Source of the DNA: Bacteroidota bacterium
GTDB lineage: Bacteria; Bacteroidota; Bacteroidia; Cytophagales; Cyclobacteriaceae
DNA: 64,000 nucleotides
Assembly (NCBI GenBank): GCA_037200765.1
Contig: JBBCII010000003.1
Location: 1,040,741 to 1,104,740 of the forward strand
Reading direction: 5' to 3'
The position numbers were made by a program, and so were the translations under genes. Below, one piece after another: positions 12,090 to 35,948 of this stretch. A model generated the notes under the pieces. That model was not told the DNA's origin, ran no database searches, and saw only the letters and a program-made list of their open reading frames with translations. Position 1 is the stretch's first letter. Every line of letters begins with the position of its first letter.

Positions 12090-12095
12090 CAAAGT

Positions 12096-13313: not shown

Positions 13314-13324
13314 ATATTAAACAT

Positions 13325-15844: not shown

Positions 15845-15877
15845 TCAAGGAATAATAAAATCATTAAAAAATAATTT

Positions 15878-16771: not shown

Positions 16772-16782
16772 AAAGATTCGTT

Positions 16783-16968
16783 ATGCCGATCGAGATCCGC
16801 GAATTGTACATCAAAGCTGTGGTAAATGATCCGAGGGAGAAAAATCCAGATGGCGCCGAAGGAAATTCAAATATGCAAGGGCAAGCCACCGTCGAGAATA
16901 CTGAACAAGTAATTGAATTATGTGTGGAGAAAGTGCTGGACGTCCTTCGTGAAAGAACGGAACGCTGA
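16783..16968 (+). CDS. Small Afp6/plug-like protein (DUF5908-like)
   Basis: MPIEIRELYIKAVV...CVEKVLDVLRERTER, at the canonical position after the second tube gene. Confidence 0.8.
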   Translation: MPIEIRELYIKAVVNDPREKNPDGAEGNSNMQGQATVENTEQVIELCVEKVLDVLRERTER

Positions 16969-16973
16969 ACGCT

Positions 16974-17687: not shown

Positions 17688-17690
17688 AAG

Positions 17691-19448: not shown

Positions 19449-19456
19449 AAGCAACG

Positions 19457-19750
19457 ATGGCTCAACCAGCAGCAAGAATTGGTGATATGCATGTTTGTCC
19501 GATGATAGGACCACCCAGCGTTCCGCATGTTGGAGGATCGTGCATAGGTCCCGGCGCGCCAACTGTATTAATTGGAGGTATGCCCGCAGCGGTAATAGGA
19601 GATAACGCGGTTTGTACTGGTCCGCCCGACATGATCATAGCCGGATCGGCAACGGTTCTTATTGGAGGAAAACCTGCAGCGCGCATGGGAGATTCAACTG
19701 CACACGGCGGGTCTATCGTGCTGGGTGACTTTACTGTATTAATCGGATAA
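19457..19750 (+). CDS. PAAR spike tip (Afp10-like)
   Basis: Three PAAR-type repeats: PAARIGD, PAAVIGD, PAARMGD. Confidence 0.96.
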   Translation: MAQPAARIGDMHVCPMIGPPSVPHVGGSCIGPGAPTVLIGGMPAAVIGDNAVCTGPPDMIIAGSATVLIGGKPAARMGDSTAHGGSIVLGDFTVLIG

Positions 19751-19763
19751 TGTATACGCAGCA

Positions 19764-20171
19764 ATGAATACCGAACTAACATTTCTTGGAAGAGGCTGGA
19801 GCTTTCCGCCGACGTTTAACGACAAACGTGCTGTGACTATGGTTGCGTATGAGGAAGATATCGTGCAGAGTTTGAAAATCCTTCTTTCGACACGACCAGG
19901 CGAGCGGGTGATGCTACCACGATACGGATGTAGTCTCGATGTCTTGCTGTTTGAACCAATTACTACCAGCTCGATCGCTTACGTAAAAGACCTGATCAAG
20001 ACCGCAGTTCTATACTACGAGCCACGAATTGAAGTTGAAGCGATTTCAATCAATACAGTGGATGTGGACGATGGCTTGATCATGATCGAGCTCAGTTACG
20101 TGATCCTGGCTACGAACTCACGATTCAACCTGGTTTACCCATTCTATATCAACGAGGGCAGTATAGTGTAA
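19764..20171 (+). CDS. GPW/gp25 baseplate protein (Afp9-like)
   Basis: FLGRGWSFPP, DIVQSLKILLSTRPGERVM.PRYGC, YEPRI, NSRFNLVYPFY. Confidence 0.95.
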   Translation: MNTELTFLGRGWSFPPTFNDKRAVTMVAYEEDIVQSLKILLSTRPGERVMLPRYGCSLDVLLFEPITTSSIAYVKDLIKTAVLYYEPRIEVEAISINTVDVDDGLIMIELSYVILATNSRFNLVYPFYINEGSIV

Positions 20172-23100
20172 ATGGAAGATCTGCGTATCATATATCGACA
20201 GCTACTTCGATCTGATGGTGTTGATCAGCTTCAGCGCCTGATGACGGCATTGAAAGAAGAATATGTTCAGTTGGATGACCGGTCTGTTGCAGGATACATT
20301 CGATATCTCTATCAGCTTTCGAAGGAGGTAAGATTTCTTAATCCGGATCTGAGCTATGCCAATACGTGGGAACCGTTGTTCGCAAGGTTCCTTGACGGTG
20401 CGGCAACACCAACTCTTGTTTCGGATGAAAAGATTGAGCAGATATCAGGTGATAAGAATATCGAACCGGCGCTGGCGTTATTGATCACCTTCCTGGAACT
20501 GATCCAGGAAAGTAAAACGAGCATTAATAAAGCGATTCGTAAGCATCTTGAATTCTTTTATAAGAACGTTTTAAAGTTTCAAATTCTTTCAGGTGTTGCC
20601 GACCGGGTACAGTTATTATTTGAGTTGAATAAGAACGCATCGCCCGTATCGATCGTTGCTGGTACTTTATTCGAAGCAGGAAAAGGACCTGATGGAAACG
20701 AACTTCGTTATGCCACAACATCGGATATCGTTGTAAACCGCGCGCGAGTTGCATCGATCAGGTCTTTGTTCGTGGAACGAGAGAAAACAAACAACACCTT
20801 TCAACTCTGGTCGGAGGTGCATGATGTTTTACCACCCACTGCAATACTTCCTCCTTTCGGCAGACCGCAGTCCAAACAACCACCTGCTACACGCACGATG
20901 CAGTATGCCGTTACTGGCTTCGTGATCAGTTCATCGTTGCTCGAGTTGAGCGGCGGTGAGCGCGTGATCGATATCGAGATGACATCAGAGTCATTCGCGC
21001 TGGATATTGTAACGTTCGACGATTTTCGGAGCTACATCCAATTCGAGCTCACTGGCGAGAAGGGTTGGGTAACGCCATTGCTCAGGAGCGTTGCGACCGA
21101 CTATGTGGAAGTTAACAACACGCGGATCTGTACATTGAAGATACAGTTGGCTCTTGGTGAAGCTTCACCCGCGATCATCCCGCACAGCAATGCTGTTCAC
21201 AAGACAGCACTTCCAGATGGGGTGCCTGCCTTAAGAATGATCACGGTGCCCGAAAAATCGGTTTCTGAATTTTTCCAGGCAGTTAGAATATCAAGCGTCT
21301 CTTTGAAAGTAAGTGTAAAAGGGCTGAGAAAATTTGTTGTTCAAAACGAAGAAGGTTTGCAGCAGCCCGATAAGCCGTTTAATCTTTTTGGTTCCATACC
21401 AGCAATAGGGAGCCGATTATATGTCGGTAGCAACGAGGTCTTTTCGAAAAATCTAAAAGGGCTTACGATCAACATAAAGTGGAAGAGTCCACCAGCGAAT
21501 TTCAATAAGTACTACGCGGGATACATGCTACCATCAACATTCAGTCACGCCGAATTCAGTATGTCGGTGGATATGCTGATGAATGGGAGCTGGGATCACA
21601 CATTGTCTGGACGTTCGTCGTTGTTTGATGCACAGAATGAAGACTATCCATACACATTGGCGTTGAATGAAACCGACCTGGCAAGGGCGAATAATTTTTC
21701 AGCCCTTACGCGTGATCAGAACGTGGGTGACGTTTCGGGAGGTTTTCGTCCTGGTGCTGGTCGCGGATTTATTCGCTTCACATTGACTGGACCAAAGTAT
21801 GATGACTTCAGCGCTTTCGGTCATTCGAATTTTACATCAGCACTCATGGAGGCCACCGCTGCGAAAATACAATTCCCAGCGGCTGATATTAAACTTCCTC
21901 AGCCTGCATACACACCGCAGGTAAAGGAGATCTCTCTCGATTATGTTGCATCGGATACGATCTTCCCAGGTACCAATGATCGTGTATTTCATCAAACACC
22001 GTTTGGAATTCGTGAGGTTACGACAAAAGGAACGTCACTCTTTCCGCAATTCGCGGAGGTCGGATACCTGCACATTGGAGTCTCCGATCTTTTGCTGGAA
22101 CAGCAAGTGAACTTGTTATTGAAGCTTGCGGAGACCGGCTTGACGAAGATTGAAAGTGACTCCGATGATTTCGCTGTGCCTGACGTTTCGTGGTCATATC
22201 TCGCTAATGAGAATTGGATTGATCTACGTCAGGATCAGATACCGGTCGATACAACAAAACAATTTCAACAGACCGGCATTGTGTCGTTACAAACCGGAGC
22301 TGATGCGAGCATAAATAATAATTCGTTTCCTGCGGGAATGATCTGGTTACGCGCTACCCTTCGCCAGGGAACCGGCAGAGTACTGCCACTTGAATCCATA
22401 CATACACAAGTAGTGGAAGCTTTACTGACACTATCGAATGATGAAGAGCTCAGCGATTATTCCATACATCTGTCAGCTGGGTTGCCACCAAATAGTGTTA
22501 AGAAGAACGTACGCATTTCGCCGGCTTTGAAGTCGATACTGCAACCTTATGCTTCTGTTGGTGGAGTGCAGCCGGAAACCAGCGATCATCTTATCGCACG
22601 AGTATCTGAACGATTACGTCATCGTAACCGCGCCATCCACACCTGGGATTTTGAGCGTATGGTGCTCAATGCATTTAATGAGATCGCTAAAGCGAAATGT
22701 TTAACAGTTAGAGATGAATTGACACAGGGAACATCGACAGTTATCGTGGTTCCGAAAATACGTATCGATCAACCAGTTTCCCGAAGACTCCAGCCGAAGG
22801 CGAGCAGCTTTTTCCTCGATGAAATCGGAACGTTTTTTAAAGCTCGTGCCTCGGCATTCACCGAAGTAGTTGTAATCAATCCACGCTATGAAGAAGTTCT
22901 CGCAGACTTTAAGGTCAAGTTCAGGGTTGGCTACGATCCGATCTATTATCTCGAAAAGTTGAACGAAGAGATAGTGAGGTTCATATCGCCATGGGCTTTT
23001 GGCGATCAGTCGGACATGCACTTTGATTCGATTGTTTATCGATCGGAGGTTCTGTATCACATCGAAAATCTTCCATACGTCGACTATGTTGCCGACTTCA

Positions 23101-23405
23101 TGTTGTTCCACTTGAACTCACTTGGCGATAAATCACCGAAGATTATCGGCAAGATGAAAGTGGGGAGAACGTTTGTTGTTGCTAGAACTCCAATGCCGAA
23201 CCTGGGAGGGATGCAAATCGGGGAGAATTTTATTGTTGGATTGGACATGGAGGTGATTGAACCATCACGTGATGAAGCGATGCTGGTATCGGTGCCGAAG
23301 CATGCAATCAAAACAACAGATGATCAGCGAACATGTTCCGGAGTATCAGGCTTAGGCATCGGAAGTATGACTATCAACTTTGATTTTATTGTAAGCAGAA
23401 GTTAA
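20172..23405 (+). CDS. Baseplate wedge, J/gp6-like (Afp11-like), 1077 aa
   Basis: HLEFFYKNVL, RVSERLRHRNRAIHTWDFERMVL, FISPWAF, IENLPYVDYV. Confidence 0.92.
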   Translation: MEDLRIIYRQLLRSDGVDQLQRLMTALKEEYVQLDDRSVAGYIRYLYQLSKEVRFLNPDLSYANTWEPLFARFLDGAATPTLVSDEKIEQISGDKNIEPALALLITFLELIQESKTSINKAIRKHLEFFYKNVLKFQILSGVADRVQLLFELNKNASPVSIVAGTLFEAGKGPDGNELRYATTSDIVVNRARVASIRSLFVEREKTNNTFQLWSEVHDVLPPTAILPPFGRPQSKQPPATRTMQYAVTGFVISSSLLELSGGERVIDIEMTSESFALDIVTFDDFRSYIQFELTGEKGWVTPLLRSVATDYVEVNNTRICTLKIQLALGEASPAIIPHSNAVHKTALPDGVPALRMITVPEKSVSEFFQAVRISSVSLKVSVKGLRKFVVQNEEGLQQPDKPFNLFGSIPAIGSRLYVGSNEVFSKNLKGLTINIKWKSPPANFNKYYAGYMLPSTFSHAEFSMSVDMLMNGSWDHTLSGRSSLFDAQNEDYPYTLALNETDLARANNFSALTRDQNVGDVSGGFRPGAGRGFIRFTLTGPKYDDFSAFGHSNFTSALMEATAAKIQFPAADIKLPQPAYTPQVKEISLDYVASDTIFPGTNDRVFHQTPFGIREVTTKGTSLFPQFAEVGYLHIGVSDLLLEQQVNLLLKLAETGLTKIESDSDDFAVPDVSWSYLANENWIDLRQDQIPVDTTKQFQQTGIVSLQTGADASINNNSFPAGMIWLRATLRQGTGRVLPLESIHTQVVEALLTLSNDEELSDYSIHLSAGLPPNSVKKNVRISPALKSILQPYASVGGVQPETSDHLIARVSERLRHRNRAIHTWDFERMVLNAFNEIAKAKCLTVRDELTQGTSTVIVVPKIRIDQPVSRRLQPKASSFFLDEIGTFFKARASAFTEVVVINPRYEEVLADFKVKFRVGYDPIYYLEKLNEEIVRFISPWAFGDQSDMHFDSIVYRSEVLYHIENLPYVDYVADFMLFHLNSLGDKSPKIIGKMKVGRTFVVARTPMPNLGGMQIGENFIVGLDMEVIEPSRDEAMLVSVPKHAIKTTDDQRTCSGVSGLGIGSMTINFDFIVSRS

Positions 23406-23429
23406 CAGACAAATAAATAACACAGTGTT

Positions 23430-24494
23430 ATGGAAAAGCAAAGGTCCGAATTGAAGTTCATGTTCCGCGATGGTGCACGCCCGAACGGAAATGATTTCAG
23501 TGATATGTTAGAGTCGTTCATTCATCGCTCGGATGATGGCCTTACTTTGAGTGCCAGAGGGGCTTTGGTCAACAATTTTACGTTAGGAAACTTCAATGCA
23601 ACTCCGGTGGCTGGATCTATGAAGTTTCTTGCAGGCGAGATCTATTTCTTCGACGGAACGAACTGGAAGAATGTGAGCTCAAACGATCTCGGCTTTCGAA
23701 GGCTTAGTCCGGCTCCGTCGACCGCTGCTGCTCCGGATGCGGCTTACTTTGGAAAGGTTGGGATTAATCTTGGCACTGCTCCGCCCGCCACCCTTGATTA
23801 TGATCTTGAGATTGGCCCGCGAAATGCTGCCGCCAGAATGCGTTCCGGTACCGCATTCATAGGCAATGGCAGTACGTCCGGTCGTGCCTATTTTTCTCAC
23901 AGCAGTTTGAGCAGCAATATCAATGCTAACTACGGCCTGGCTCAGGATACAAACGGAGCAGTATTTATCAACGTCCCTTCGAACAGCCAAGGCGTAACCT
24001 TCGGTACCGGAGATCAGGGACAGCTACTAATTAAGAATGGTCGAATAGTTGTCGGTAACACCATCGCACTAACACCCAATCCAAATCCGCCTGCTACAAA
24101 CCCGACGGATCAGATCATGCTTCATTGTCATGGTCATGCCATAAAGAGCTCTGGTGGAGCCGCGTGGCTCGTAACATCCGACATACGCACGAAAAAAGAT
24201 GTCGCAAAATTTGCCGACGGCCTCGACAAAGTACGAGCATTAAATGCGATCCGTTTCCGGTACAATGGCAAAGGAGGAACAAAAGATGGACAGGAGCAGA
24301 TCGGTCTCTCCGGACAGGATGTCGAAAAAATTATGCCTTATATGGTAACACGTCTTGGCAACAAGACAGCCGATGAAGGTGCCGAAAATTATCCCGACGA
24401 CATGATAGTGCTCGACTCGAGTCCTCTCATCTATGTCCTTCTTAATGCAGTCCAGGAACTCGACAAAAAATTAACATCAATAGAAACAGCTTAA
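23430..24494 (+). CDS. Tail fibre (Afp13-like) with C-terminal intramolecular chaperone (Peptidase S74-like)
   Basis: N-terminal fibre-base motif RSELKFMFRDGARPNGNDFSDMLESF; SDIRTKKD cleavage motif, IGLSGQDVEKIMP, terminal coiled coil. Confidence 0.85.
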   Translation: MEKQRSELKFMFRDGARPNGNDFSDMLESFIHRSDDGLTLSARGALVNNFTLGNFNATPVAGSMKFLAGEIYFFDGTNWKNVSSNDLGFRRLSPAPSTAAAPDAAYFGKVGINLGTAPPATLDYDLEIGPRNAAARMRSGTAFIGNGSTSGRAYFSHSSLSSNINANYGLAQDTNGAVFINVPSNSQGVTFGTGDQGQLLIKNGRIVVGNTIALTPNPNPPATNPTDQIMLHCHGHAIKSSGGAAWLVTSDIRTKKDVAKFADGLDKVRALNAIRFRYNGKGGTKDGQEQIGLSGQDVEKIMPYMVTRLGNKTADEGAENYPDDMIVLDSSPLIYVLLNAVQELDKKLTSIETA

Positions 24495-24505
24495 CCATTT
24501 ATACC

Positions 24506-24700
24506 ATGAATGATCAACTCGAAATACGGATCTCTACTGCCGAAGCAGGAGTAATCTTTGGAGCACTCAGCAATCTTCCATACATACAAGTGCATGAGCT
24601 CATCCACAACCTCCAAAACCAGATAGGTCCACAGCTCGCCGAAAAGGAAAAACAGAAGAATCTCAATAGCACAGCGCAATCTGAGATGAAGACTGCATGA
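24506..24700 (+). CDS. Small helical protein, possible fibre assembly chaperone
   Basis: 64 aa, GALSNLPYIQVHELIHNLQNQ; stop overlaps the next start (ATGA at 24697). Confidence 0.55.
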   Translation: MNDQLEIRISTAEAGVIFGALSNLPYIQVHELIHNLQNQIGPQLAEKEKQKNLNSTAQSEMKTA

Positions 24701-27531
24701 GCCAGGAGATCCAGGCATTTATTTCGGACGGTGTCGATTCTGTAGATCAGGATTACGCCGCGTTACGCCAGAAAGCGATTGAAAAAATTCAGTCACTGTC
24801 TGGACAAACGTGGACTGATCACAACGCTCACGATGTCGGGATCACGGCAATAGATGCACTGTGCTTTGCTATAACCGAGCAGGGCCATCTTAATAATTTA
24901 TCTACCGAAGACCTTCTGAAATTATATGGATCGGAAGATGCCACGACAAGAGACTTTTTTGGCGCAGAGGTTGTTCTGCATAACGATCCGGTTACGTTGC
25001 TTGACTGGCGTAAATTCCTGATCGATCGCACCGACATACGAAATGCATGGTTGAATCCAATCACGGGTAATACAGCGCCGCAGTTGCTGTTGAAAAATAA
25101 TCAATACTCTTTGGCCGATGGCGTGCAAGTAAAATTGAAGGGCTTGTACGATGTATTGATAGAATGGGAGAACGTGCCATCTCTCGGCGAGCTCAACGGT
25201 AATATGATCATGGCTTCGGTAACCGTTGCCCTTCCAAACGGTGTTCAAAAATCATATCGGGCCGACATCACATTTCCATTTGGATGGGATACCGAGGACG
25301 CCAATTTTAAAGCTTTCAGGAACAAGCTCAACATATTTGCCATCACAGCAACGACTGGTTTTGTCCAGCCAAAGCTGGAGCAGATGGGAATTGGCTCGAA
25401 TACGTACTTTTCCGATCTCCTGATCCATTTATCACCAGTATCAGCAATCACTGTTGGTATTATCCTTCGTATCAATACGGAGATCACCAGTGAATTAGAG
25501 CGTAGCATCGTTGAATCCAGATTCGGAGCATTGCTTTCAGCTAACCCTGGAGTTGTTAGTCTTTACAATGACATCGTCGTTAAAGGTTATTCACTTTCAC
25601 AAACAACCAGGGCCCTTTTATCAGCGAAACGAAACCTGGCCGAAGATTTTGTTGCGCTTCGCGCAATCAGTATTCAGGAGATCGCTATTCAAGCAGAGAT
25701 CGATCTCGTTCCCGGTTCGCCAGTCGAAGACATTCTTGCGGAGATGTTTCTCACCTTAGATAGGTTTATCAGTCCTCAATTTCATTTCGAGCCGTATGAG
25801 AATGAAACGCGTGAAGGACCGAAATTGGTAAATGGCTATTTAAGTGATGAACAGTTGACCGGCGCACCGGGGAGAAGCATTTTTCTTTCCGATTTGTTGA
25901 ACATCATGCTGGAGAACAGTGACGGGAAGCGACGCGAACAGATCGTTGCAATATACAATCTCTCAATTCAGAGCTACATCAATAATAAAGAAGCCGGCAG
26001 AAGCCAGGAGAACTGCCTGCGGCTTGTTGATGATCCAGTTTATCGTCCACGTTTAAGTGTATTCAAGTCCCACATTGTTATAAACTCGCGGGATACTGTT
26101 GTGCCTTACGATATCAATAAGGTCTTCAGTAAGTATCTCGCTCTAAAGAATACTGTACCCGCAAGTACAACAGTTTCATCTGTCGCTACCCTGCCAGACA
26201 TGAGTGTTGTAAAGCCCTTGCCCGGGTATCACCCGGTACAATATGAGTTTCCGGCATTCTATCATCTTTCGTTGCCCAGCAATACTGCGATCAACCTGCA
26301 GATGCGCGGTTATCTTTTTTTCTTCGAACAAGTGCTTGCAAATGCTTCAAGTCTACTAAGAAATTCTCCGAAGCTTCTTTCAATTGGTAACAACGACCTA
26401 GAAACCAGTTACCCCGCAAACCTGCGTGAGTTACTTCCTTTTTACAACGACTATCTTAATCCTTCGTATGAGTCGGCGCTCGCAACGAGCACGTCGGCCA
26501 ACGAAGCACGGAGGAGCTTGATGCTCGATCATTTACTTGCGAGGCTGGGAGAGGACTTTCGGTATTTCGCTTCATGGAATTCACTCACTACAAGCCAGGT
26601 CAATACAGCGAAGTATAATTTCCTGAAAGCCCTGCCGGTATTAGCGGGTGCACGGTTTAAAGCATACGACTATAGTTCGCCTGCATGGAACACGATCAAC
26701 GTTTCCACAACAGAGCAAAAGCTCAAACATCTTCTGCAGTTGCCGGATATAACTCAGAAAAAATTATGGAGAGACCCATCGCCGAATTTCAATGTAGTTG
26801 CGACAGCCGGGCCAAATGTAACTTATGGTTTTCGCGTGACCGATGCGGCCAACACTCCACTGCTAAAGAGTGCAGCCGACACTTTTGAATTTCAATTTGA
26901 AGCGGAAGACAACGCTACAGATCTCATTCTGTACGGAAGAGAAATTGGCAACTACAATGTGATCAGAACGGGTGCGGTATTCAGCTTTGCTGTTGTCGAC
27001 CCCGAGAATTATACCATCGCTATTTCAGAGAATACTTTTGCCACATCGACATTGGCTGCGGCAGCCATTCAAAGTACTATCACGTTTCTCAAGCAGTGGC
27101 TTCCCCTCGAGGGATTACATATAGTAGAGAATATTTTATTGCGACCACAATTTTATTCGACGCCTGGTCTTTTCGATACTTTATTAACGATCCCGCTTTT
27201 GGAGGACGGTTCGATTTCTCCGGCCTTCGGGAACGACTTGTATTCACAACAAGTACTTGTTGTACTTCCACGTGGCGGTAATCGCTTCGGTAGCCCGGCT
27301 TTCCAGGATATAGCGCGTGAAGTGATCCGTCGCGAGTTTCCATCATGGATCAAAGTCCGGGTTGTGTGGCTGAACATATTTATGATGCATGAGTTTGAGC
27401 TTGCATACCAGTCTTTTGTTCAAACAAAGTCGAATAATGCAGCGACCGAAAGTGCAATGCGCTTGGCGAAGGGCGGTTTGGTGGATGCATTGAACAAAAT
27501 TTATCGATGGTTGAATATTGAGCTAAGATGA
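24697..27531 (+). CDS. Baseplate wedge (Afp12-like), 944 aa
   Basis: SGQTWTDHNAHDVGITAIDALCFAITE, RNLAEDF, QMRGYLFFFEQVLAN, HIVENILLRP, DLYSQQV, IRREFPSWI. Confidence 0.9.
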   Translation: MSQEIQAFISDGVDSVDQDYAALRQKAIEKIQSLSGQTWTDHNAHDVGITAIDALCFAITEQGHLNNLSTEDLLKLYGSEDATTRDFFGAEVVLHNDPVTLLDWRKFLIDRTDIRNAWLNPITGNTAPQLLLKNNQYSLADGVQVKLKGLYDVLIEWENVPSLGELNGNMIMASVTVALPNGVQKSYRADITFPFGWDTEDANFKAFRNKLNIFAITATTGFVQPKLEQMGIGSNTYFSDLLIHLSPVSAITVGIILRINTEITSELERSIVESRFGALLSANPGVVSLYNDIVVKGYSLSQTTRALLSAKRNLAEDFVALRAISIQEIAIQAEIDLVPGSPVEDILAEMFLTLDRFISPQFHFEPYENETREGPKLVNGYLSDEQLTGAPGRSIFLSDLLNIMLENSDGKRREQIVAIYNLSIQSYINNKEAGRSQENCLRLVDDPVYRPRLSVFKSHIVINSRDTVVPYDINKVFSKYLALKNTVPASTTVSSVATLPDMSVVKPLPGYHPVQYEFPAFYHLSLPSNTAINLQMRGYLFFFEQVLANASSLLRNSPKLLSIGNNDLETSYPANLRELLPFYNDYLNPSYESALATSTSANEARRSLMLDHLLARLGEDFRYFASWNSLTTSQVNTAKYNFLKALPVLAGARFKAYDYSSPAWNTINVSTTEQKLKHLLQLPDITQKKLWRDPSPNFNVVATAGPNVTYGFRVTDAANTPLLKSAADTFEFQFEAEDNATDLILYGREIGNYNVIRTGAVFSFAVVDPENYTIAISENTFATSTLAAAAIQSTITFLKQWLPLEGLHIVENILLRPQFYSTPGLFDTLLTIPLLEDGSISPAFGNDLYSQQVLVVLPRGGNRFGSPAFQDIAREVIRREFPSWIKVRVVWLNIFMMHEFELAYQSFVQTKSNNAATESAMRLAKGGLVDALNKIYRWLNIELR

Positions 27532-29084
27532 TAATGCGTGGCAACCATATCATCGATAAGCAAACTGTGGATCTATCTATTCAGCGCGTAGAAGATTTTC
27601 ATCCTGTGGCCGATAGATTGCAGGAGCTGCTGTATCACCAGGTGTATCCACAACTTTCGGATGAGATGGATCGGCTTTGTGACGATGAGAGCACCATAAC
27701 GATACAACGAGTGGAGATCGATCTTGGTGTGATCCGGTCGGTGGACGAAGCAAACATTGCGGATCTCATTGTCAGAGAGATCTCGAGAAAATTGCGATCG
27801 TCGATACAAATATTGGCAGGACGTTCGGTTGAGCACGGTGTAGCGATCGTGCAGTCGGACGTTTATTCCTGGCGTTTGTGGTGTAAGTATTTGAAAACCG
27901 GTGTGATGCCAAGTGGAGTGAGACCAGAGTTGAATCAGGAGGAATTGGAGAGGGTCTTATTGAAGGGAATTTCATCTTCGTATCGGGAAGAGATCATTAA
28001 CATCATTCGCGAAACATTAATCGATAAACACGCAGCGAAACGTTTGTCGATAGTATTCTCGCTGCAGTTCATCGAAGAGATCGCGATCGCAACATCCATA
28101 ATGATAGAGGATCATGTGGAGATCAAGCAAATGATCAGAGAGCTTGTTGCGTACACAAAGATCGATCATCTGGTTATTGAAAGAGTATTCTGGGAGTACT
28201 TATTGACAAACAGAGGAGATGATCCAACTATCTTCTTCGTAGGTTTCATCAATGCGTTGGTCTTGAAATATTCAAATAAAGATTGGCATGAGATCCTTAC
28301 TAAGTGGATGCAAGGTCGGTCCGAAAGCTCTCGCTCTATATCAAATCAGGGAAGTATAAATGCATTCTTAAAGTTATTGTTAAGTACAACAAGCTATTCT
28401 GATTTTCGGGAACTATCCAGGAAAGCATTCTCAGCTGTTGTCGATAAGATTTCTTCTTCGGCGTTTGAAGTCATTCAGAGCAAAGGAACGATCTCATTCA
28501 TGCCGCGCACTCAATCAAGTGATTCAGTTCGAAGTTCTACGAGTTCGCCACTATGGCGCGATCGCGACGCCGATTTAAAAGAACCTATTTATACAAAGCA
28601 TGCCGGCCTTGTCATAACCGCGTCATTTCTGCCTCATTTCTTCGAAGCAGTTGGGTTGATCAGGAATGATCGCTTCATCAACATTCATGCACAGGAAGAA
28701 GCCGTACGACTCGCTGGCTTTCTTGCAACTGGAGATGTAGGCATGAGTGATTGGGAATTGCTGGTGCCAAAGATCCTCTGCGGTTTGCCAATCGACCACC
28801 CAATTTCATCCGACGAAATATTAGACGATATGAAGCTGGACGAAGGCGTGACACTGTTGAGATCGATCATCAGTCATTGGAATGTGCTCGGCGATAGCAG
28901 TGTGGATGGGTTGCGACAAGGTTTCTTACAACGCGATGGAAAGCTAACTCAACAGGAAAATGGTGAATGGCTTTTGCAGGTGGAGAAGAGGACGATCGAT
29001 ATTTTGTTGGATCGCTTGCCGTGGGGTTTTGGTATGATCAGGCATTCATGGATGAGGGGAATGCTTACGACGGAATGGGTGTAA
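27528..29084 (+). CDS. Contractile injection system tape-measure protein (Afp14-like)
   Basis: HIIDKQTV N-terminus; C-terminal HAGLVI...FLPHFF...GLRQGFLQRDGKL...LQVEKRTIDILLDRLPWGFGMI..SWM. Confidence 0.9.
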   Translation: MIMRGNHIIDKQTVDLSIQRVEDFHPVADRLQELLYHQVYPQLSDEMDRLCDDESTITIQRVEIDLGVIRSVDEANIADLIVREISRKLRSSIQILAGRSVEHGVAIVQSDVYSWRLWCKYLKTGVMPSGVRPELNQEELERVLLKGISSSYREEIINIIRETLIDKHAAKRLSIVFSLQFIEEIAIATSIMIEDHVEIKQMIRELVAYTKIDHLVIERVFWEYLLTNRGDDPTIFFVGFINALVLKYSNKDWHEILTKWMQGRSESSRSISNQGSINAFLKLLLSTTSYSDFRELSRKAFSAVVDKISSSAFEVIQSKGTISFMPRTQSSDSVRSSTSSPLWRDRDADLKEPIYTKHAGLVITASFLPHFFEAVGLIRNDRFINIHAQEEAVRLAGFLATGDVGMSDWELLVPKILCGLPIDHPISSDEILDDMKLDEGVTLLRSIISHWNVLGDSSVDGLRQGFLQRDGKLTQQENGEWLLQVEKRTIDILLDRLPWGFGMIRHSWMRGMLTTEWV

Positions 29085-29130
29085 ATGTATTATAGAAAAA
29101 TTATTCTCTCAGATAATAAAATCCCTGTTT

Positions 29131-31419
29131 ATGAAAAACATACTTCTTTTTCGATCAGCAGTCGTGGTTCTGCTGCAGATAATGTTCATGTCCTTGGCTC
29201 AGGCACAGATCGTTTTTCCGACCTGGCCTTCGGGGACGCCGGCCTTCACTGACTTTTCTGAATCCGATGGGCTTGGAGGCACTAAAACCGGAAAGGAGAT
29301 AACGATCTTTAAAGGAACAGTATCTGTTACGTTTGATTTTAATTTCAGTGGTGGTTCAGGTACCGAAAGCTGGGTTGTTAATACACCAAGTTGTACCTCT
29401 GGGATGTGTCCAACACTTTCGCCGATCAGTTCTACAGGCGTTCTGACATTTACACCATTAAATGTCAGCACGTTGGAGTTTGGGCTTGAAGGCAATGTTG
29501 GTTCATCATCACAAACAATTCTGGTAAGAATCAAAATAGTCGACGGGCCGAACGCACCTCGCCAACCTATCGATCTCGTACTGGTTCTCGATCAATCGGG
29601 AAGTATGAGTTCTTATACCATTTCCCCAACAACCCGGTGGGACGCTCTCAAAACTGCTGTACTTTCTTTTATGACGAAGTTTGAAAACTTCGCTGTGATC
29701 GGTGATCGTGTTGCTATCACTTACTTCGACACACCAGTTGTGAACGGACTGGGCACTGCAATAGCGCCATTTACTCCTATCGTCCCTGGTGTAAAGGCCA
29801 CGGTGGCCACCAGCCTTAGTGGTCATGGTCCGGCAGATCTTACTGCGATGGGTGAGGGCCTTCTTGATGCAAAGGCTAAGCATGCCCTGTTAACAACTTC
29901 AACCAACCGGAAAGTAGTTTTGCTATTTACCGATGGCTATCAGAATGAGGGAAGACTCGTTACCCCCGGAGGCACTACAGTTGACGATGGTACTTCAATC
30001 AACAACAGTTCCGGCAGCATTAAAATTTATACTGTCGGTATCGGCGCCGCTGGATCATTGCCGGCTATACTCGCGTCTATCGCAAACAATAATCACGGCA
30101 CATTAAATTCTCCTGCCACAATATCATCCGGTAACGCATCATGGTCTACCCTAACTGGCAACGACGCAGTATTTGTTACCGACTTTGACAATGCTTTCAA
30201 ACAAATGCTCGAAGGATCAAGTCCGCAGATTGTTGGTATGACCGAAGGAACTATTCAATTTCCGTCGAACACGATTGATAGCGCAACGTTCGTAGTGAAC
30301 AAAGATGTCGACAAGCTCTTGTTCGAATTGTATGCGTCGCCAGCCGCGCAAGTGCGGATCTATAAAAATGGCATCGCGGTGACGCCGACACGCACCGATT
30401 CCGGACCTGGATACAGAACTTTCATTTTTGATTTCCCTCGAAGTGGTGTTGCTGCACAACCCGACGGAACATGGACCGTGATTACATCATTGCCCGGCAG
30501 CGGTGGAACAGCAACGCATGGAAATGTTGTGCGCTTCCAGTATTCCCTTATAGCAATGGTCGATGATCATCGGTTCGACTACACTTGTTCGCAAGGAGCT
30601 ACTTCATTCAAGTCGGGCGATGATTTGAAACCTACTGTCAACATTCACTATAACGGCACTGAAGTTACAAACGCAACTGTGCAAGCAGTTCTGTTAAAGC
30701 CGGGGCAGGATCTCGGAAACCTGTTGGCGACAACAAAAGTTACTCTCGGAACTCCACCAGCCACTGACCCCGGGTCCGCAGGCAATCAAAAGTATGATCA
30801 GCTTCTTAGCGACCCAGCTTTTCTCGCGAAGATGCTTCCGATCAATCAATCAATGACCCTTACTCATACTTCCGGTGGTGTGTATACTGCAACTCCGTTA
30901 AAGCTCGATACCACCGGTGTTCATAGAATAATTTATTTCATCAACGAAACACTCCCGGGTGGCGACATCATTCAGCGTCGCGAGGAGCAAACATTCTACG
31001 TTCAATTCAAAGACATAGACTTGCCCGCTTCCAATCCAATATTATCAGGCAGTGGAACATCATGGACTCTTACACTTCGTCCAGTGACTTTGCTTCATAA
31101 GTTTGTTGGTCCTGCATTTCAGCAAACATTTACGGTGACCAGTCCAGGTCTTGTGCTGAATGATTTGGTTGATGTTGGCGATGGAACTTATAAACTGAAT
31201 ATGACCGGCAGTCCCGATGACAACGTGAAGATCGCACTGCTCGACGTTCCCGTCTACACCGGGACATTGAGTGAGATCCAATGCTACGATCCTAACGCAA
31301 GCTTCTGGACAAAACTCGAATGCTGGTTGCTCAGCCTGGGAATTCCTCTCTGGTTGGCATCGCTTATCGTCGTTATCATCATATTGATCCTCGTGTGGTT
31401 ACTGAGAAGAAGAAGGTAG
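29131..31419 (+). CDS. Sec-exported vWA (MIDAS) protein with C-terminal TM anchor
   Basis: Signal peptide ending LAQA; DLVLVLDQSGSM, TAMGEGL, VVLLFTDG; C-terminus WLLSLGIPLWLASLIVVIIILILVWLLRRRR. Confidence 0.88.
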   Translation: MKNILLFRSAVVVLLQIMFMSLAQAQIVFPTWPSGTPAFTDFSESDGLGGTKTGKEITIFKGTVSVTFDFNFSGGSGTESWVVNTPSCTSGMCPTLSPISSTGVLTFTPLNVSTLEFGLEGNVGSSSQTILVRIKIVDGPNAPRQPIDLVLVLDQSGSMSSYTISPTTRWDALKTAVLSFMTKFENFAVIGDRVAITYFDTPVVNGLGTAIAPFTPIVPGVKATVATSLSGHGPADLTAMGEGLLDAKAKHALLTTSTNRKVVLLFTDGYQNEGRLVTPGGTTVDDGTSINNSSGSIKIYTVGIGAAGSLPAILASIANNNHGTLNSPATISSGNASWSTLTGNDAVFVTDFDNAFKQMLEGSSPQIVGMTEGTIQFPSNTIDSATFVVNKDVDKLLFELYASPAAQVRIYKNGIAVTPTRTDSGPGYRTFIFDFPRSGVAAQPDGTWTVITSLPGSGGTATHGNVVRFQYSLIAMVDDHRFDYTCSQGATSFKSGDDLKPTVNIHYNGTEVTNATVQAVLLKPGQDLGNLLATTKVTLGTPPATDPGSAGNQKYDQLLSDPAFLAKMLPINQSMTLTHTSGGVYTATPLKLDTTGVHRIIYFINETLPGGDIIQRREEQTFYVQFKDIDLPASNPILSGSGTSWTLTLRPVTLLHKFVGPAFQQTFTVTSPGLVLNDLVDVGDGTYKLNMTGSPDDNVKIALLDVPVYTGTLSEIQCYDPNASFWTKLECWLLSLGIPLWLASLIVVIIILILVWLLRRRR

Positions 31420-31435
31420 AAGCTTTCTGTAATCG

Positions 31436-34400
31436 ATGAAATCTTCCGAACATAAGGCATCTCCCAGTGCTTCAAAGGCGCAAGCCAACAAAAGCACGTT
31501 CTTCACAAAGAAGAAGGGAGAGGCTTTTGCCCGTGAGAATGATTCATTGATCCAACCCAAACTCTATGTTCATCCCTCTGCCGATTCGTTTGAACGGGAA
31601 GCTGACGCGATGGCAGAGCACGTCATGCAATCTCAACACTCGAATGAGGTCAACAAGCATTCAACAGTTAGCGACAACATAGGCCGGGTTCAAACGAAAC
31701 GACCATTCGATAGCCCAACCATTCTCGAAACAAACAGTGCTCACGATGATCCTGCGTTGCAACGAAAGGAGGCCGAAGGTCATAACAACGGATCGGAAGC
31801 ACCAGGAGGAGTCGAGTCAAAGCTGAACTCTTCGAAGGGTCATGGTTCTGCGTTGCCTGAAGAGACCCAATCGAAAATGGAATCGGGCTTCGGTAAAAAT
31901 TTCAGTCATGTAACTGTGCATAATGATCACCATGCTGCCGAGATGAATGAAGAGCTCGGCGCGCGGGCATTCACTTATGGTAACGACATCTATTTTAATA
32001 AAGGAGAATATAAGCCAAACACTTCGAATGGCGACCGGTTGATCGCTCATGAATTGACACACACCGTTCAGCAGGGCGGTGGCGTTCAAAAGAAATCGAT
32101 TCAAAAAGAGCCGAAGCAGAAAGATATCATTAAAGCATCGCCCGATGAGTTGTCGGAGGTGACTAAACCGGCTGCTGGCTATCTCGAGAAAAACAAGGGC
32201 GACAAAGTTCCAACAATCCATATCAAGCAGGCAAAGGCAAAGAAGTATTTATCGAAAGGCGATGTGTCGTGGCTTCCGGACCAGGTGTCGTTGCCAAAAG
32301 GAAAACGACATACGAAGCAGGCTGGTCTTTGGAAGGGCGACATTCGCGAAGAGGTTAAGAAGCAAATGGTGAAGCTCGCGGGCAACCCGACGGATTCGCA
32401 AAAACTATTTCAGCTGTCGCTCAAAGGAAAAAAGAAAGGCAAAGGTGCCAGGAAAGGAGAACCGGAAGGTGGAATGGTTGGAACCGTCGATCAACTTGCC
32501 GAAGAGGTGCTTGTTCCCTCCTGGAATGTTGGCGGAGGGACGGCGCTCTTCGATATCGAGCACATGGTCGACTGGCAGATCTGCGGGCCTTTAGCCGATC
32601 AGATCAAGAACCTGATCCTCCTGGACCGAAGGTATAACAGGCAGTTGGGCAACCAGGTACGCGACAACCTTCACACCGCCGTCAAAGCGATCTTCGAACC
32701 CTATCGAAAAAAATTCAAGATCAGTGACGACATCGGTTCGGTGTTGGATGCGCTACCCGCAATACTTTACAAGGCTGGGCTTACCTATACTAACGAGGAT
32801 CTTTCGCCGGATCAATGGTATTCAAATGTTGAATTAAAAACGACAGCCGATAGCGGCAATCCCTTCAAGGAAAAACTTATTACAGTCGACGATCCCGACA
32901 TTCCCGACGGTCATTTTCTTTTAATTACTTCTGACAAACGACCCGGCTATATCCTTCCGTTCGATCTCCCAAAGATGAAGATCGGCGCATTCAACATCGT
33001 CAGCGTTAAGCATAAGAACAATAAGCTTGAGTCGATCAAGGTAGAACCCATTCTCGAAGATGCCAGGAACACCCTAAGTAATTCGAAGAAGCAAACCCCG
33101 ATCGATTTACCATTCGACGACAAGGGCAAGAATACTTATAAGATAAAGAACGGCGACCTTAATCGCGCCTTTGCTGCCAATCTCAAGAGCTTCATCGGTG
33201 GGGTGAATGGCATGAGCCCGATTGAGTTCGCCGAACCCGAGATCGATGGACTGAACGTTAAGATCACAGGAAAGGTCATACCTACCATCAGCATCTTTAA
33301 AGATGTAGATATCACTTTCGGCTACGAAGACGGAATGTTTTTTATCCGGGCCGAGGTACCGTTAACGAAGCTCGCATCTTCTATTCCGAAGCCGTTCAAA
33401 GTAGATGCATGCAGTATTGTTATTGAGGCGAATTCTATCGATGGGCTTCTTATCGCTGGCTTCGCTGCATTCAGTATCGGCTCATTTGGCGAGGGAGAGA
33501 TCTTCGCGAAGAAAGGAAAGAATGTGGAGTTTGGCGGACGCTTCAACTTTAACAACAAATGGTTCGATCCGGCAGAGATCAACTTCGATTATAAAAATGG
33601 AAAGTGGGGTATAGGAGGAAAGATCGGCATTGGTGAAGGGAAGATCAAAGGTATCAGGCAAGCAACTCTTGCGGTAAAATATGCTAACGACACTTTCACA
33701 GCCGATGGCGATGCAACGCTCGATGTTCCGGGAATAAAGTCGGTAAAATTATCGGCGAGTTATGCCGAGGGTCAGGGCTTCAGGTTTATAGCCACCGCTG
33801 ACCTGAAGAAGATGCCTGGCATCAAGAGCGGTTCGGTAACCGTCAGTATTCTCTCGAAGAACGATGGGGACATAAAGCTCGGTGCGGCAGGTACAGCAGA
33901 GCCCGATTTTCCTAAAGTTCCAGGACTTACGGGCACCAGTCTCACCGTAAGCTACGACGATGGGGTATTCGAGATGCGGACGAAAGTCGGCTATAAGAAA
34001 GGCCGCTTTGATGGAACCGTCGAAGTTGGTGTTACCAATAAGAACGTCGATGAAAAAGGTCAACCAACTGGTGAAGCACAGAAGGGTGATAATGTAGTTG
34101 TCTTTGGCTATGGAAGTCTTACGGTCGATCTCTTCAAGGGAAGTAAAGGAACGATAAGTGTCCGCCTCACTCCGGACAAAAAATTACTGGCGGCTGGTAG
34201 CTTTACCATTCAAAATCTTAAACCATTCGGCCCCGGTGTCGACATCTTTAAAAAGATCGTCGAGTTTCCTTCTATTAAGATTCCGCTTGTTGGCGTTCCG
34301 GGTGTAAGCATCTTCTTTGAGATTTCGGGTGGAGCCTATTTCAAATTTGTATGGGATCCACTGGTGCTGAAAGAACTCACCATTGCGTTCACGGAAACCG

Positions 34401-35302
34401 ATATCAATGAGATTGAAACTGCCCAGGTAACGATCCATGGATCGATAGGATCGAAAGCAACTGCCGAAGCATATATGGAGGTGAAAGCGTCGCTTGGCGC
34501 TCAAGTATTGATTGCGGAAATCAAGGGATCGCTCGCAGGCCAGGCTGGTATTGGTGTTGAAGCGGAAGCAGGAGGTGAAGTGGACGCCACATGGAACAAC
34601 GACAAAGGTCTGCAGTTGAAACAGATCACAGCTTATGTAGCCGTTAACCCGAAGGCGATCTTCCGCCTCAAAGGCAGCGTTAGTGTAGATCTCGATCTGT
34701 GGATCACGACCGTCAATCTTTATTACAAAGAGTGGACGCTTGCAGAAGGCGCAGCCGACCTGAGTGGCCTTGCATTGAAAGTAAATTTCCCACTCAAGTT
34801 TGACGACAACGGTGACCTTATACGGCCCGGGTTCGATCAGCTCAGTATAGAGAAGCCAGACTTCTCAGGGGAGCAGGGTAAAGCAGCGTTGGACGGAGGA
34901 ATCAACGCAGATGCGAAAAAAGAACGCAAGCTGGCAAAGGACAAACTCCGTCAGGACATCGCGCGCGACATTCAGGACTCAACGAATGATGAAGATTTCT
35001 CGCCTTCGGAATACGCGAAGAAACTGCAAAAAAAATATAAAGACGATGAAGAGATGAAAACCTTCATTATGGATTCGGTAGAAGAAGAAGTAAAGACCAA
35101 AGAGTATCAGCAGTTCGAAGTATTCAAAGAAGAGATGAGAAAATCGCCACTTACGTTGAGTCGGAAAATGTCGAAGGCGATGCTGTTCAAGCTGTGGCGT
35201 GGACGCATCAGTCCAGGCGACTACTACGCCTTCATCGAAGAGCTCCAGGCAAACGAACAACAAAAACAAAACGCTGCAACTGCGGCACCAGCAACAGTAT
35301 AA
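31436..35302 (+). CDS. DUF4157 (eCIS core domain) cargo/effector with HNH-like motif and beta-rich C-terminal half
   Basis: IQPKLYV..SADSFEREADAMAE, ARAFTYGNDIYF..GEY, LIAHELTHTVQQ; DIEHMVDWQICG...NLILLDRRYNRQLG. Confidence 0.88.
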   Translation: MKSSEHKASPSASKAQANKSTFFTKKKGEAFARENDSLIQPKLYVHPSADSFEREADAMAEHVMQSQHSNEVNKHSTVSDNIGRVQTKRPFDSPTILETNSAHDDPALQRKEAEGHNNGSEAPGGVESKLNSSKGHGSALPEETQSKMESGFGKNFSHVTVHNDHHAAEMNEELGARAFTYGNDIYFNKGEYKPNTSNGDRLIAHELTHTVQQGGGVQKKSIQKEPKQKDIIKASPDELSEVTKPAAGYLEKNKGDKVPTIHIKQAKAKKYLSKGDVSWLPDQVSLPKGKRHTKQAGLWKGDIREEVKKQMVKLAGNPTDSQKLFQLSLKGKKKGKGARKGEPEGGMVGTVDQLAEEVLVPSWNVGGGTALFDIEHMVDWQICGPLADQIKNLILLDRRYNRQLGNQVRDNLHTAVKAIFEPYRKKFKISDDIGSVLDALPAILYKAGLTYTNEDLSPDQWYSNVELKTTADSGNPFKEKLITVDDPDIPDGHFLLITSDKRPGYILPFDLPKMKIGAFNIVSVKHKNNKLESIKVEPILEDARNTLSNSKKQTPIDLPFDDKGKNTYKIKNGDLNRAFAANLKSFIGGVNGMSPIEFAEPEIDGLNVKITGKVIPTISIFKDVDITFGYEDGMFFIRAEVPLTKLASSIPKPFKVDACSIVIEANSIDGLLIAGFAAFSIGSFGEGEIFAKKGKNVEFGGRFNFNNKWFDPAEINFDYKNGKWGIGGKIGIGEGKIKGIRQATLAVKYANDTFTADGDATLDVPGIKSVKLSASYAEGQGFRFIATADLKKMPGIKSGSVTVSILSKNDGDIKLGAAGTAEPDFPKVPGLTGTSLTVSYDDGVFEMRTKVGYKKGRFDGTVEVGVTNKNVDEKGQPTGEAQKGDNVVVFGYGSLTVDLFKGSKGTISVRLTPDKKLLAAGSFTIQNLKPFGPGVDIFKKIVEFPSIKIPLVGVPGVSIFFEISGGAYFKFVWDPLVLKELTIAFTETDINEIETAQVTIHGSIGSKATAEAYMEVKASLGAQVLIAEIKGSLAGQAGIGVEAEAGGEVDATWNNDKGLQLKQITAYVAVNPKAIFRLKGSVSVDLDLWITTVNLYYKEWTLAEGAADLSGLALKVNFPLKFDDNGDLIRPGFDQLSIEKPDFSGEQGKAALDGGINADAKKERKLAKDKLRQDIARDIQDSTNDEDFSPSEYAKKLQKKYKDDEEMKTFIMDSVEEEVKTKEYQQFEVFKEEMRKSPLTLSRKMSKAMLFKLWRGRISPGDYYAFIEELQANEQQKQNAATAAPATV

Positions 35303-35313
35303 CGACAAACATC

Positions 35314-35934
35314 ATGAGACAGAGAAGAGTACGTTCAAGGCACAAACCGTCGTTGGAAAGTCAACGGCCTTTCTTTGAAAAGAAGAGTGCAGAAGGCGAA
35401 AGCTTTTTCACTAAGACAAATGCAGTTCATCGGAAGGCTGACATCGGACACTCGAGTGATCCGTTGGAAGCCGATGCAGATAATGCAGCACAAAAGGTAA
35501 CTTCTCAGCAACAAGTTCAGAAGGCAGAGAAGAAAGAGGAAGAGAAGCCAGTGCAAAAGGCTGCGAAGCAGGAAGAAGAAAAACCTGTTCAGCGTAAAAT
35601 CGATCCCCGTCTCCAAACAGCGAAGGAAACAAGCAACGATGATGGCGGTCATGCGCCGACTTTTGAAACTTTACTTGCGGAACGCAAGGGCAGAGGATTT
35701 CCATTGCCGGATGACATTCGCATCGAGATGGAAAGAAAATTTGGAAGCAATTTTAGAAAGGTCAGGATCCACAATGATCCCGAAGCTTCTGCGATGTGTG
35801 AAACTATTAATGCATACGCGTTTGCCCACGGTTATGATATCTATTTTCAAAACGGATTTTACGATCCTTCATCGAGCGATGGTAAGGAACTGTTGGCGCA
35901 CGAGCTCGCGCACATTGTTCAGCAAAATGGTTAG
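35314..35934 (+). CDS. Stand-alone DUF4157 protein with no C-terminal payload
   Basis: DPLEADADNAAQKV, VQK-E-rich repeats, AYAFAHGYDIYF..GFY, LLAHELAHIVQQNG then stop. The likely start is ATG 35314; the track start 35194 overlaps the previous gene. Confidence 0.85.
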   Translation: MRQRRVRSRHKPSLESQRPFFEKKSAEGESFFTKTNAVHRKADIGHSSDPLEADADNAAQKVTSQQQVQKAEKKEEEKPVQKAAKQEEEKPVQRKIDPRLQTAKETSNDDGGHAPTFETLLAERKGRGFPLPDDIRIEMERKFGSNFRKVRIHNDPEASAMCETINAYAFAHGYDIYFQNGFYDPSSSDGKELLAHELAHIVQQNG

Positions 35935-35948
35935 TTAAAGATCCAACG

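Follow-up and report, generated by a model that had tools for sequence, protein, structure and literature searches.

Extracellular contractile injection systems (eCIS) are viewed as particles that are built in the cytoplasm and freed by lysis, and they are being engineered as protein-delivery tools. Why, then, should the operon for such a particle encode an exported protein that is fixed in a membrane? The 64,000-nucleotide stretch of DNA analysed here (the window; positions 1,040,741 to 1,104,740 of contig JBBCII010000003.1, from a Bacteroidota bacterium of the Cyclobacteriaceae) raises this question: directly after its CIS_TMP tape-measure gene, the eCIS operon carries a gene for a protein with a predicted signal peptide, a von Willebrand factor A (vWA) domain with a metal ion-dependent adhesion site (MIDAS), a stalk of β-sandwich domains and a C-terminal transmembrane (TM) helix. 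This membrane protein resembles vWA adhesins and has been recruited, as a conserved accessory, by contractile injection systems (CIS). Its function we infer: it may be an envelope-fixed, metal-dependent docking or recognition protein for the system's own particles or fibres, a reading to which we give a probability of roughly 0.35. The gene and its immediate surroundings are as follows.

27528..29084, + strand: CIS_TMP tape-measure gene (Pfam, E = 1e-98), directly upstream of the vWA-protein gene; it defines the slot considered below
29085..29130, no strand: 46-bp spacer between the CIS_TMP and vWA-protein genes, lacking both a terminator-like site and a Bacteroidota -7 motif, crossed by a metatranscriptome contig (28935-29204)
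29131..31419, + strand: gene for the predicted exported, membrane-anchored vWA protein, from the list of open reading frames (ORFs); 762 aa plus stop codon; Pfam VWA and VWA_2; homologues to E = 1e-185
31436..35302, + strand: DUF4157 (eCIS_core) cargo-type gene, 1288 aa (Pfam), starting 16 bp after the vWA-protein stop codon

The ORF and the gaps of 46 bp and 16 bp that flank it are exactly those given in an earlier note on this DNA, which had held co-transcription with the neighbouring genes to be very likely. Neither spacer contains a terminator-like site; scans for sigma-70 and Bacteroidota -7 promoters gave counts at or below chance and are uninformative. Two metatranscriptomes from the same sample as the window DNA, which belongs to a wood-decay metagenome, cover the eCIS operon at low depth, and one contig spans the junction between the tape measure protein (TMP) gene and the vWA-protein gene, DNA carry-over in the RNA libraries being possible for both observations. 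The vWA-protein gene is thus probably co-transcribed with the eCIS operon, to which it is tightly linked.

The 762-aa product starts with the ATG at 29131. A public gene call (P0001, 741 aa) instead begins at a TTG, codon 22, whereby the signal peptide is lost. Comparison with relatives argues that the ATG at 29131 is the true start and that of P0001 wrong, because 28 of the 29 eCIS-linked homologues (defined below) have an equivalent, signal-peptide-like N-terminus. As a side observation on positions 29131-29196 of the window, the export signal of this protein family may be hidden by automated annotation. The protein divides into the parts listed here.

29131..29205, + strand: Sec-type signal peptide, residues 1-25, from sequence and hydrophobicity, with predicted cleavage after A-Q-A
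29206..29559, + strand: N-terminal Ig-like head, residues 26-143, with Cys88 and Cys93, defined by a hidden Markov model (HMM) and common to all post-TMP slot proteins
29560..30216, + strand: vWA domain, residues 144-362 (Pfam; PDB profile search)
29590..29604, + strand: MIDAS motif D154-Q-S156-G-S158, completed by T238 and D268 (sequence; alignments A1 to A3)
30217..31266, + strand: stalk of about four β-sandwich domains, residues 363-712 (AlphaFold2, Foldseek, stalk HMM), family-specific and with no Pfam model
31267..31347, + strand: juxtamembrane helix with Cys718 and Cys731 (C-x12-C) and a GIP before the TM helix (AlphaFold2 helices 713-735)
31348..31416, + strand: TM helix, residues 740-758, then the predicted cytoplasmic RRRR, residues 759-762 (Kyte-Doolittle, KD(19) = 3.2)

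The N-terminus reads MKNILLFRSAVVVLLQIMFMSLAQA before the predicted cleavage site and QIVF after it. Its basic n-region, hydrophobic core (Kyte-Doolittle 2.2-2.8) and A-Q-A at -3/-1 agree with the cleavable Sec signal that the earlier note had proposed. Pfam assigns residues 148-322 to VWA_2 (PF13519; 36.6 bits, cut-off 27) and VWA (PF00092; 31.7 bits, cut-off 23.8), and a PDB profile search with the vWA domain matched solely the vWA domains of the adhesins PilB, Mfa5 and CLCA1. NCBIfam gave nothing for the protein beyond a generic vWA match, and PHROGs and PADLOC gave no match. The MIDAS, likewise claimed as intact, is complete (D154, S156, S158, T238 and D268), and these residues are invariant or nearly so across 20 eCIS-linked homologues.

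The several β-sandwich domains that had been read from the translation reappear in an AlphaFold2 model, in which residues ~30-140 and 366-712 form β-rich domains, the predicted local distance difference test score (pLDDT) being 65-93 in the C-terminal half. Foldseek matched these to the tandem Ig-like arrays of DUF4785, SpaC, invasin and alpha-2-macroglobulin, and the stalk HMM matches all homologues. Strands and helices alternate over residues 147-361, but with pLDDT mostly below 60; the N-terminal half of the model is weak because the alignment held only 10 sequences, and the geometry of the head and vWA domain is therefore not interpreted here.

Of the 17 operon products, the vWA protein alone has a signal peptide or TM helix, which makes it the one predicted envelope protein of the operon. 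Based on the signal peptide and the positive-inside rule, the predicted topology places ~715 residues in the periplasm and four (RRRR) in the cytoplasm, with a single helix in the cytoplasmic membrane. With these two predicted features, signal peptide and TM helix, the protein would not be a part of the cytoplasmic particle. The C-terminal Cys motif, TM helix and RRRR described before are all found (Cys718, Cys731, residues 740-758 with KD 3.2, and residues 759-762). The C-x12-C pair looks like a juxtamembrane disulfide; it is conserved in a subclade, being kept in L009, L010, L108 and P0118 and missing in P0002, and a membrane-proximal Cys pair fits an oxidising compartment.

A C-terminal TM helix is found in 22 of the 29 eCIS-linked homologues and in 107 of 150 family sequences scanned (147 top family matches and three earlier homologues). 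Some homologues have no anchor, and in others it is such a helix, a hairpin of two TM segments or an outer-membrane barrel (OMP_b-brl, matched by Pfam in L074); tandem homologue pairs with different anchors occur in L017, L070, L074 and L108. The tail had been described as either a stop-transfer anchor or a sortase-type sorting signal. The former agrees with the predicted plain TM helix. The latter is not supported: NCBIfam C-terminal sorting models gave no match at E ≤ 1 with either the whole protein or its last 51 residues, and a GLPxW-type motif is present in 27 of the 107 TM-bearing sequences. No cognate sorting enzyme was found among the window genes searched against Pfam, while the homologue loci were not searched exhaustively. 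We therefore rejected a sortase, exosortase or rhombosortase signal, given the lack of a sorting model, the restriction of the Cys and GLPxW motifs to a subclade and the interchangeability of the anchor. As a separate observation, one homologue clade (L038, L052 and L058, also L036, L054, L065, L078 and L082) has an outer-membrane β-barrel-like C-terminus; the clade sits in a conserved operon of ~12 genes, mostly without a Pfam match, which include a caspase (C14) and a papain-like (C1) peptidase.

Is the gene a regular member of eCIS operons? Word-index homologue searches returned 7 to 45 matches, mostly generic vWA proteins, and missed the eCIS clade. We thus used degenerate-pattern scans, of one genome per GTDB species and of metagenomes, with alignment subsets A2 and A6, since alignments A1 and A5 were too divergent to yield search patterns. 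The genome scan gave 78 loci with relatives, whose CIS linkage was judged by a search with the window's own eCIS proteins. The closest relative among the GTDB representative genomes is 48% identical. In 22 of the 78 species-level loci, the homologue follows CIS_TMP immediately, and the order gp25, baseplate J, fibre, Afp12-like protein, TMP, vWA protein, DUF4157 and AAA is kept. These 22 loci come from Bacteroidota (Chitinophaga, Nibrella, Spirosoma, Maribacter, Aquimarina, Psychroserpens, Saprospiraceae and Lewinellaceae), Acidobacteriota, Gammaproteobacteria, Alphaproteobacteria and Cyanobacteria. Seven further homologues lie in two other CIS lineages, which brings the CIS-linked loci to 29 of 78 and leaves 49 that are not CIS-linked. 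In Sphingomonas, the order is gp25, baseplate J, a 1362-aa protein, a 177-aa protein and a DUF6519 (eBAP5) fibre, with the homologue directly after it; Lysobacteraceae have two homologues between the Baseplate_J/Tail_P2_I genes and the AAA gene. The homologue of L074 is placed likewise, as known by tblastn matches to gp25 and AAA only.

A sample taken from the eCIS side, by scanning metagenomes with the fibre-protein alignment, yielded 15 loci that continue past TMP. All 15 have in the post-TMP slot an ORF with a signal peptide and the head domain of the family. The vWA domain and stalk are present in ten of these slot proteins; in the other five (L092, L098, L110, L112 and L123), vWA is replaced by a VWD-like segment with a GDPH motif, by Big_3_5 or by a ricin-type lectin. 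In two of these five, L110 and L123, the C-terminus is present and anchored, and both retain a TM helix with a basic tail. The co-occurrence with eCIS that the earlier note had proposed to check is thus borne out by 29 of 78 species-level loci and 15 of 15 eCIS-side loci, and its contrary outcome, homologues mostly unlinked to eCIS, was not upheld.

The head-region HMM matches CIS-slot proteins only, including the five without vWA. The hhalign comparisons relate it remotely to the N-domain of the non-CIS clade anchored by β-barrels (probability 89-93%) and gave no relation to the N-domain of the Bacteroidales clade described below; the former result weakens any claim that the head is unique to eCIS. 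Over 25 loci, the distance matrix of the vWA protein tracks those of baseplate J, the fibre, the Afp12-like protein and TMP (r = 0.78-0.83). As judged from these distances, the gene is therefore an operon resident, inherited together with its neighbours and not exchanged in the way of cargo. It is a stable accessory of one eCIS lineage, that with eBAP2-type fibres. Two loci are broken: in L072 (Chitinophaga sp. E66, a complete genome) and L057 (a metagenome-assembled genome of Leptolyngbya) the homologue is split into two or three ORFs, and in L072 the baseplate J and fibre matches are fragmentary too. Both look like decaying loci or sequencing frameshifts.

The family extends well outside CIS loci. 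A full HMMER search found at least 1210 family clusters (50% identity) at E ≤ 1e-30, and the best 150 matches all align from vWA through the stalk to the C-terminus. N-terminal heads of other members include subtilase, trypsin-like, M14 and tyrosinase domains. Because heads and anchors vary across the family, the combination of vWA, stalk and anchor looks like a general scaffold for envelope display, the eCIS members being told apart by their head. One branch bears directly on a possible partner. In 23 Bacteroidales loci with no other CIS gene (L019, L023, L030, L034, L044, L049 and 17 more), a 2-TM-anchored homologue, frequently as a tandem pair, lies amid 49 Peptidase_S74 fibre genes that occur in clusters of one to five. 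A signal peptide and a conserved FNYQAVxRD motif mark the majority of the S74 fibres whose start is present, and YadA-head or collagen repeats occur in some. As a control, 21 loci of the remaining non-CIS clades hold essentially no S74 fibre genes. In a neighbour-joining tree that is rough and has no support values, the Bacteroidales clade is sister to the eCIS-linked members from Bacteroidota. We found no description of this module of S74 fibre and vWA protein in the literature. The tail fibre of the window ends in the same kind of domain.

23430..24494, + strand: tail fibre, N-terminus of the eBAP2 type, Peptidase_S74 chaperone domain at the C-terminus, a candidate partner of the vWA protein (Pfam; alignment A5)

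The eCIS tail fibres of this lineage have no signal peptide and carry the S74 domain at the end. It is mainly because the Bacteroidales homologues adjoin exported S74 fibre genes that we suspect the fibres as partner.

How might an envelope protein serve a particle made in the cytoplasm? In the docking reading, the vWA protein would be exported by Sec and held in the cytoplasmic membrane by its single C-terminal helix, with the ectodomain in the periplasm. Head and vWA domain would bind a partner through the MIDAS metal, and the likeliest partner would be the system's own particle, via its fibres. Contact would arise once lysis of the producer, or an incoming particle, brought the two together, and the outcome may be that particles are tethered to remnants of the producer envelope or that kin envelopes are marked. 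The C-terminal element would serve merely to fix the protein to the envelope, which would explain the swaps among helix, 2-TM hairpin and outer-membrane barrel. In support, both the vWA domain and the overall fold find their nearest solved structures among adhesins (PilB, Mfa5, SpaC and invasin).

Several points weigh against a docking role. The particle or fibre is a candidate partner only, and signal peptide and topology are predictions from sequence. An inner-membrane protein of a diderm cell is hidden from free particles unless the outer membrane is breached. L022 and L063 combine vWA with a mini-fibre that has no S74 domain, and L098, L110 and L123 combine S74 fibres with VWD-like or lectin modules in place of vWA; with such counter-examples in both directions, covariation of vWA with S74 inside eCIS loci was rejected. 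The co-divergence with the fibre does not rise above that with other operon proteins (partial r = 0.18, compared to 0.39 for TMP), so that the mirror-tree comparison shows general operon co-divergence and no excess indicating fibre-specific co-evolution. Finally, the AlphaFold2 model of the head and vWA domain is poor, with pLDDT below 60. A bolder version of the docking reading seems to us rather doubtful. In it, the vWA protein would represent a class of CIS accessory of its own: a MIDAS receptor, new to these systems, that is fixed in the envelope, spans the periplasm and makes physical contact with the system's fibres or particles. Bacteroidales would have taken over the pairing as an independent module, made up of exported S74 fibres and an anchored vWA protein. 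If true, eCIS biology would gain a stage at the envelope, for example tethering, the arming of kin or self-recognition.

The same data can be read in other ways. An envelope protein might protect its own cell, by masking the fibre receptor or by intercepting incoming particles or their cargo in the periplasm, which would spare kin and avoid waste on debris; phage T5 Llp and the periplasmic immunity proteins of type VI secretion systems (T6SS) are functional parallels. The predicted periplasmic exposure, the position directly upstream of the DUF4157 cargo gene and the conservation of the gene in the operon suit such a role, and the variation of the binding modules (vWA, VWD-like, ricin lectin) is as expected if they match variable surface structures. 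However, its 762 aa and conserved head set the protein apart from the small immunity proteins that are specific to a toxin; it co-diverges with structural genes and does not follow the cargo C-termini, which vary greatly; and its Bacteroidales relatives occupy toxin-free loci. Self-protection also presupposes bacterial targets, an assumption for this eCIS, and we consider it unlikely on balance. That the protein is a general adhesin, which binds prey, host matrix or substrate and not the particle and, co-expressed with the eCIS, keeps targets near when particles are released, would agree with its pilus-tip layout of signal peptide, vWA, Ig stalk and C-terminal anchor, with its closest structures (SpaC, PilB, Mfa5, invasin), with the lectin and VWD-like modules that replace vWA in the slot and with the other heads of the wider family, proteases and tyrosinase included. 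An inner-membrane anchor in a diderm would nonetheless keep such an adhesin beneath the outer membrane, and the strict, co-diverging link to one operon slot exceeds loose co-regulation; this account is quite unlikely in our estimate. The earlier note had further suggested a trans-envelope anchor, to be compared with T6SS-iv and CisA. An anchor of that kind which holds the baseplate from the cytoplasmic side is disfavoured, given that RRRR alone is cytoplasmic and that the operon encodes no other TM protein. A strut across the periplasm, over a baseplate that is itself docked to the inner membrane, as part of a cell-attached machine like T6SS-iv or that of Aureispira, could make use of an ectodomain that, extended, might reach ~20-25 nm by domain count, about the width of the periplasm. 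The homologues anchored in the outer membrane by a β-barrel and the tandem pairs with different anchors would be compatible with it, as is the fact that the trans-envelope complex proteins of Aureispira T6SS-iv are unnamed in the preprint. Yet the same four cytoplasmic residues, with no other operon TM protein, leave little to couple the baseplate, family searches of Pfam and NCBIfam detected no TssJ, TssL, TssM or CisA homology, and fibres, a typical trait of released particles, are among the operon products; machines believed to work while attached to the cell are without typical tail fibres (PMC12210884). A strut is therefore improbable.

The remaining alternatives fare worse. The protein could be a passenger, functionally untied to the eCIS, as one might suppose of a family of >1200 clusters in which 49 of 78 species-level loci are not CIS-linked. 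The same slot is, however, filled across distant phyla and in 15 of 15 eCIS-side loci, the divergence of the gene parallels that of structural genes and two further CIS lineages have homologues as well, so we hold this to be very improbable. Proteins with a vWA domain are often paired with AAA+ ATPases, and a cytoplasmic, MoxR-vWA-like partnership with the operon's ATPase might aid assembly or cargo loading: the AAA gene lies 4.5 kb downstream in the window and directly downstream of the homologue in L035, L079 and L086. But the predicted topology places the vWA domain outside the cytoplasm, in another compartment than the ATPase, the ATPase matches PF00004 and no MoxR-type model, and slot proteins without vWA exist, which together make this highly implausible. 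An equally slim chance attaches to an injected anti-eukaryotic toxin or cargo, the label given to VWA domains of eCIS loci by Geller et al. (2021), who found VWA_2 8-fold and VWA 9.7-fold enriched in such loci and classed them as 'anti-eukaryotic toxin' and as 'cloud' (PMC8213781). A protein with a Sec signal peptide and a TM anchor could not be loaded into the tube lumen in the cytoplasm, there is neither DUF4157 nor a disordered N-terminal packaging region, and the slot is fixed and the gene co-diverges with structural genes.

The rest of the operon, on the + strand, and its second cargo-type gene are listed here.

11490..37316, + strand: whole eCIS operon, cap to AAA ATPase (Pfam; metatranscriptome coverage)
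11490, + strand: Pvc16_N cap (Pfam)
12096-13313, + strand: 405-aa ORF in the interval between cap and sheath, with no Pfam, NCBIfam or PHROGs match
13325, + strand: sheath (Pfam)
15878 and 16313, + strand: two gp19 tube proteins (Pfam)
16974, + strand: CIS_tube (Pfam)
17691, + strand: VgrG-like spike (Pfam)
19764, + strand: gp25 (Pfam)
20172, + strand: baseplate-J-like protein, 1077 aa (Pfam)
24697, + strand: Afp12-like protein, 944 aa (Pfam)
35194-35934, + strand: second DUF4157/eCIS_core ORF (Pfam)
35949, + strand: AAA ATPase (matches PF00004; no MoxR-type model)

With its listed GTG start, the second DUF4157 ORF (35194-35934) overlaps the end of the 1288-aa cargo gene by ~109 bp, and its true start is probably further downstream. 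Outside the operon, a LytTR-type response regulator gene just upstream (10270-11013) is a candidate eCIS regulator, and a gene for a protein with a zinc ribbon and Peptidase_Mx (37587-38660) follows the AAA ATPase gene. A 1476-aa ORF at 42825-47255 joins an AcrB-type RND transporter to an outer-membrane efflux protein (OEP) domain, either an unusual fusion or a read-through of two genes.

How far is all this known? The statistical association of the domain with eCIS is already on record, while the architecture, the topology, the conserved slot and the parallel with S74 fibres appear to be undescribed in the literature searched. In a 2026 eCIS fibre catalogue, VWA is mentioned only as an eBAP4 fibre domain, and neither the AlgoCIS paper nor the dbeCIS paper nor a metagenome survey of 2025 speaks, in the text searched, of a vWA, signal-peptide or transmembrane protein. 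The earlier note had seen here the strongest sign of an undescribed system. This was too strong: the accessory protein is undescribed, but the kind of system is known and the enrichment of the domain has been published, under another label. The genes of Geller et al. share the Pfam domains of the vWA protein. Their label of 'anti-eukaryotic toxin' does not fit it, because the protein is exported and anchored, by prediction, and sits in a fixed slot with a conserved head, in contrast to 'cloud' toxins. Thus a published domain label is corrected, and an operon slot and a family of ≥1200 clusters, with a stalk that has no Pfam model, are defined. A conserved, exported and anchored operon product would imply a step at the producer envelope that lies outside current models, be it docking, retention, self-recognition or protection. 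It is also a specific candidate for the envelope-associated densities seen by cryo-electron tomography in related systems, and the Bacteroidales loci, with exported S74 fibres and an anchored homologue, offer an independent system in which to test the partnership.

Membrane proteins are encoded in other CIS clusters. CisA of the Streptomyces coelicolor CIS is bitopic, cluster-encoded, absent from the purified particle and needed for function (PMC12237407). It resembles the vWA protein in being a membrane protein encoded within a CIS cluster. The two differ in that the cytoplasmic N-terminus of CisA is predicted to contact the CIS (PMC12237407), compared to the mere RRRR here, in that the CisA host is monoderm and the present one diderm, and in sequence, no relation between the two having been detected. 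T6SS-iv and thylakoid CIS (tCIS) machines have envelope attachments within a related CIS lineage: those of Amoebophilus, the trans-envelope complex and antennae of Aureispira, which the ixotrophy preprint describes with the proteins unnamed, and the thylakoid-anchored CIS of Anabaena. By their descriptions these machines dock by baseplate extensions or TM proteins, and this sets them apart from an operon with fibres and no other TM protein. BatA- and BatB-type proteins are, like the vWA protein, bacterial vWA proteins anchored in a membrane, and BatA is the sole NCBIfam match (28.9 bits, cut-off 380); Bat proteins differ, however, in topology and size and have no Ig-like stalk, and the gene here does not lie in a bat operon. 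The best matches in fold and sequence are pilus and fimbrial adhesins, namely SpaC of Lactobacillus rhamnosus, PilB of Streptococcus sanguinis and Mfa5 of Porphyromonas gingivalis, which carry a MIDAS vWA domain on Ig-like domains, as here. The Gram-positive pilus adhesins also share the signal peptide and the C-terminal hydrophobic segment with a basic tail. In contrast to these adhesins, the vWA protein has no LPXTG, no C-terminal domain of the type IX secretion system and no pilin context; it instead has a plain TM anchor, belongs to a diderm cell and is encoded inside an eCIS operon.

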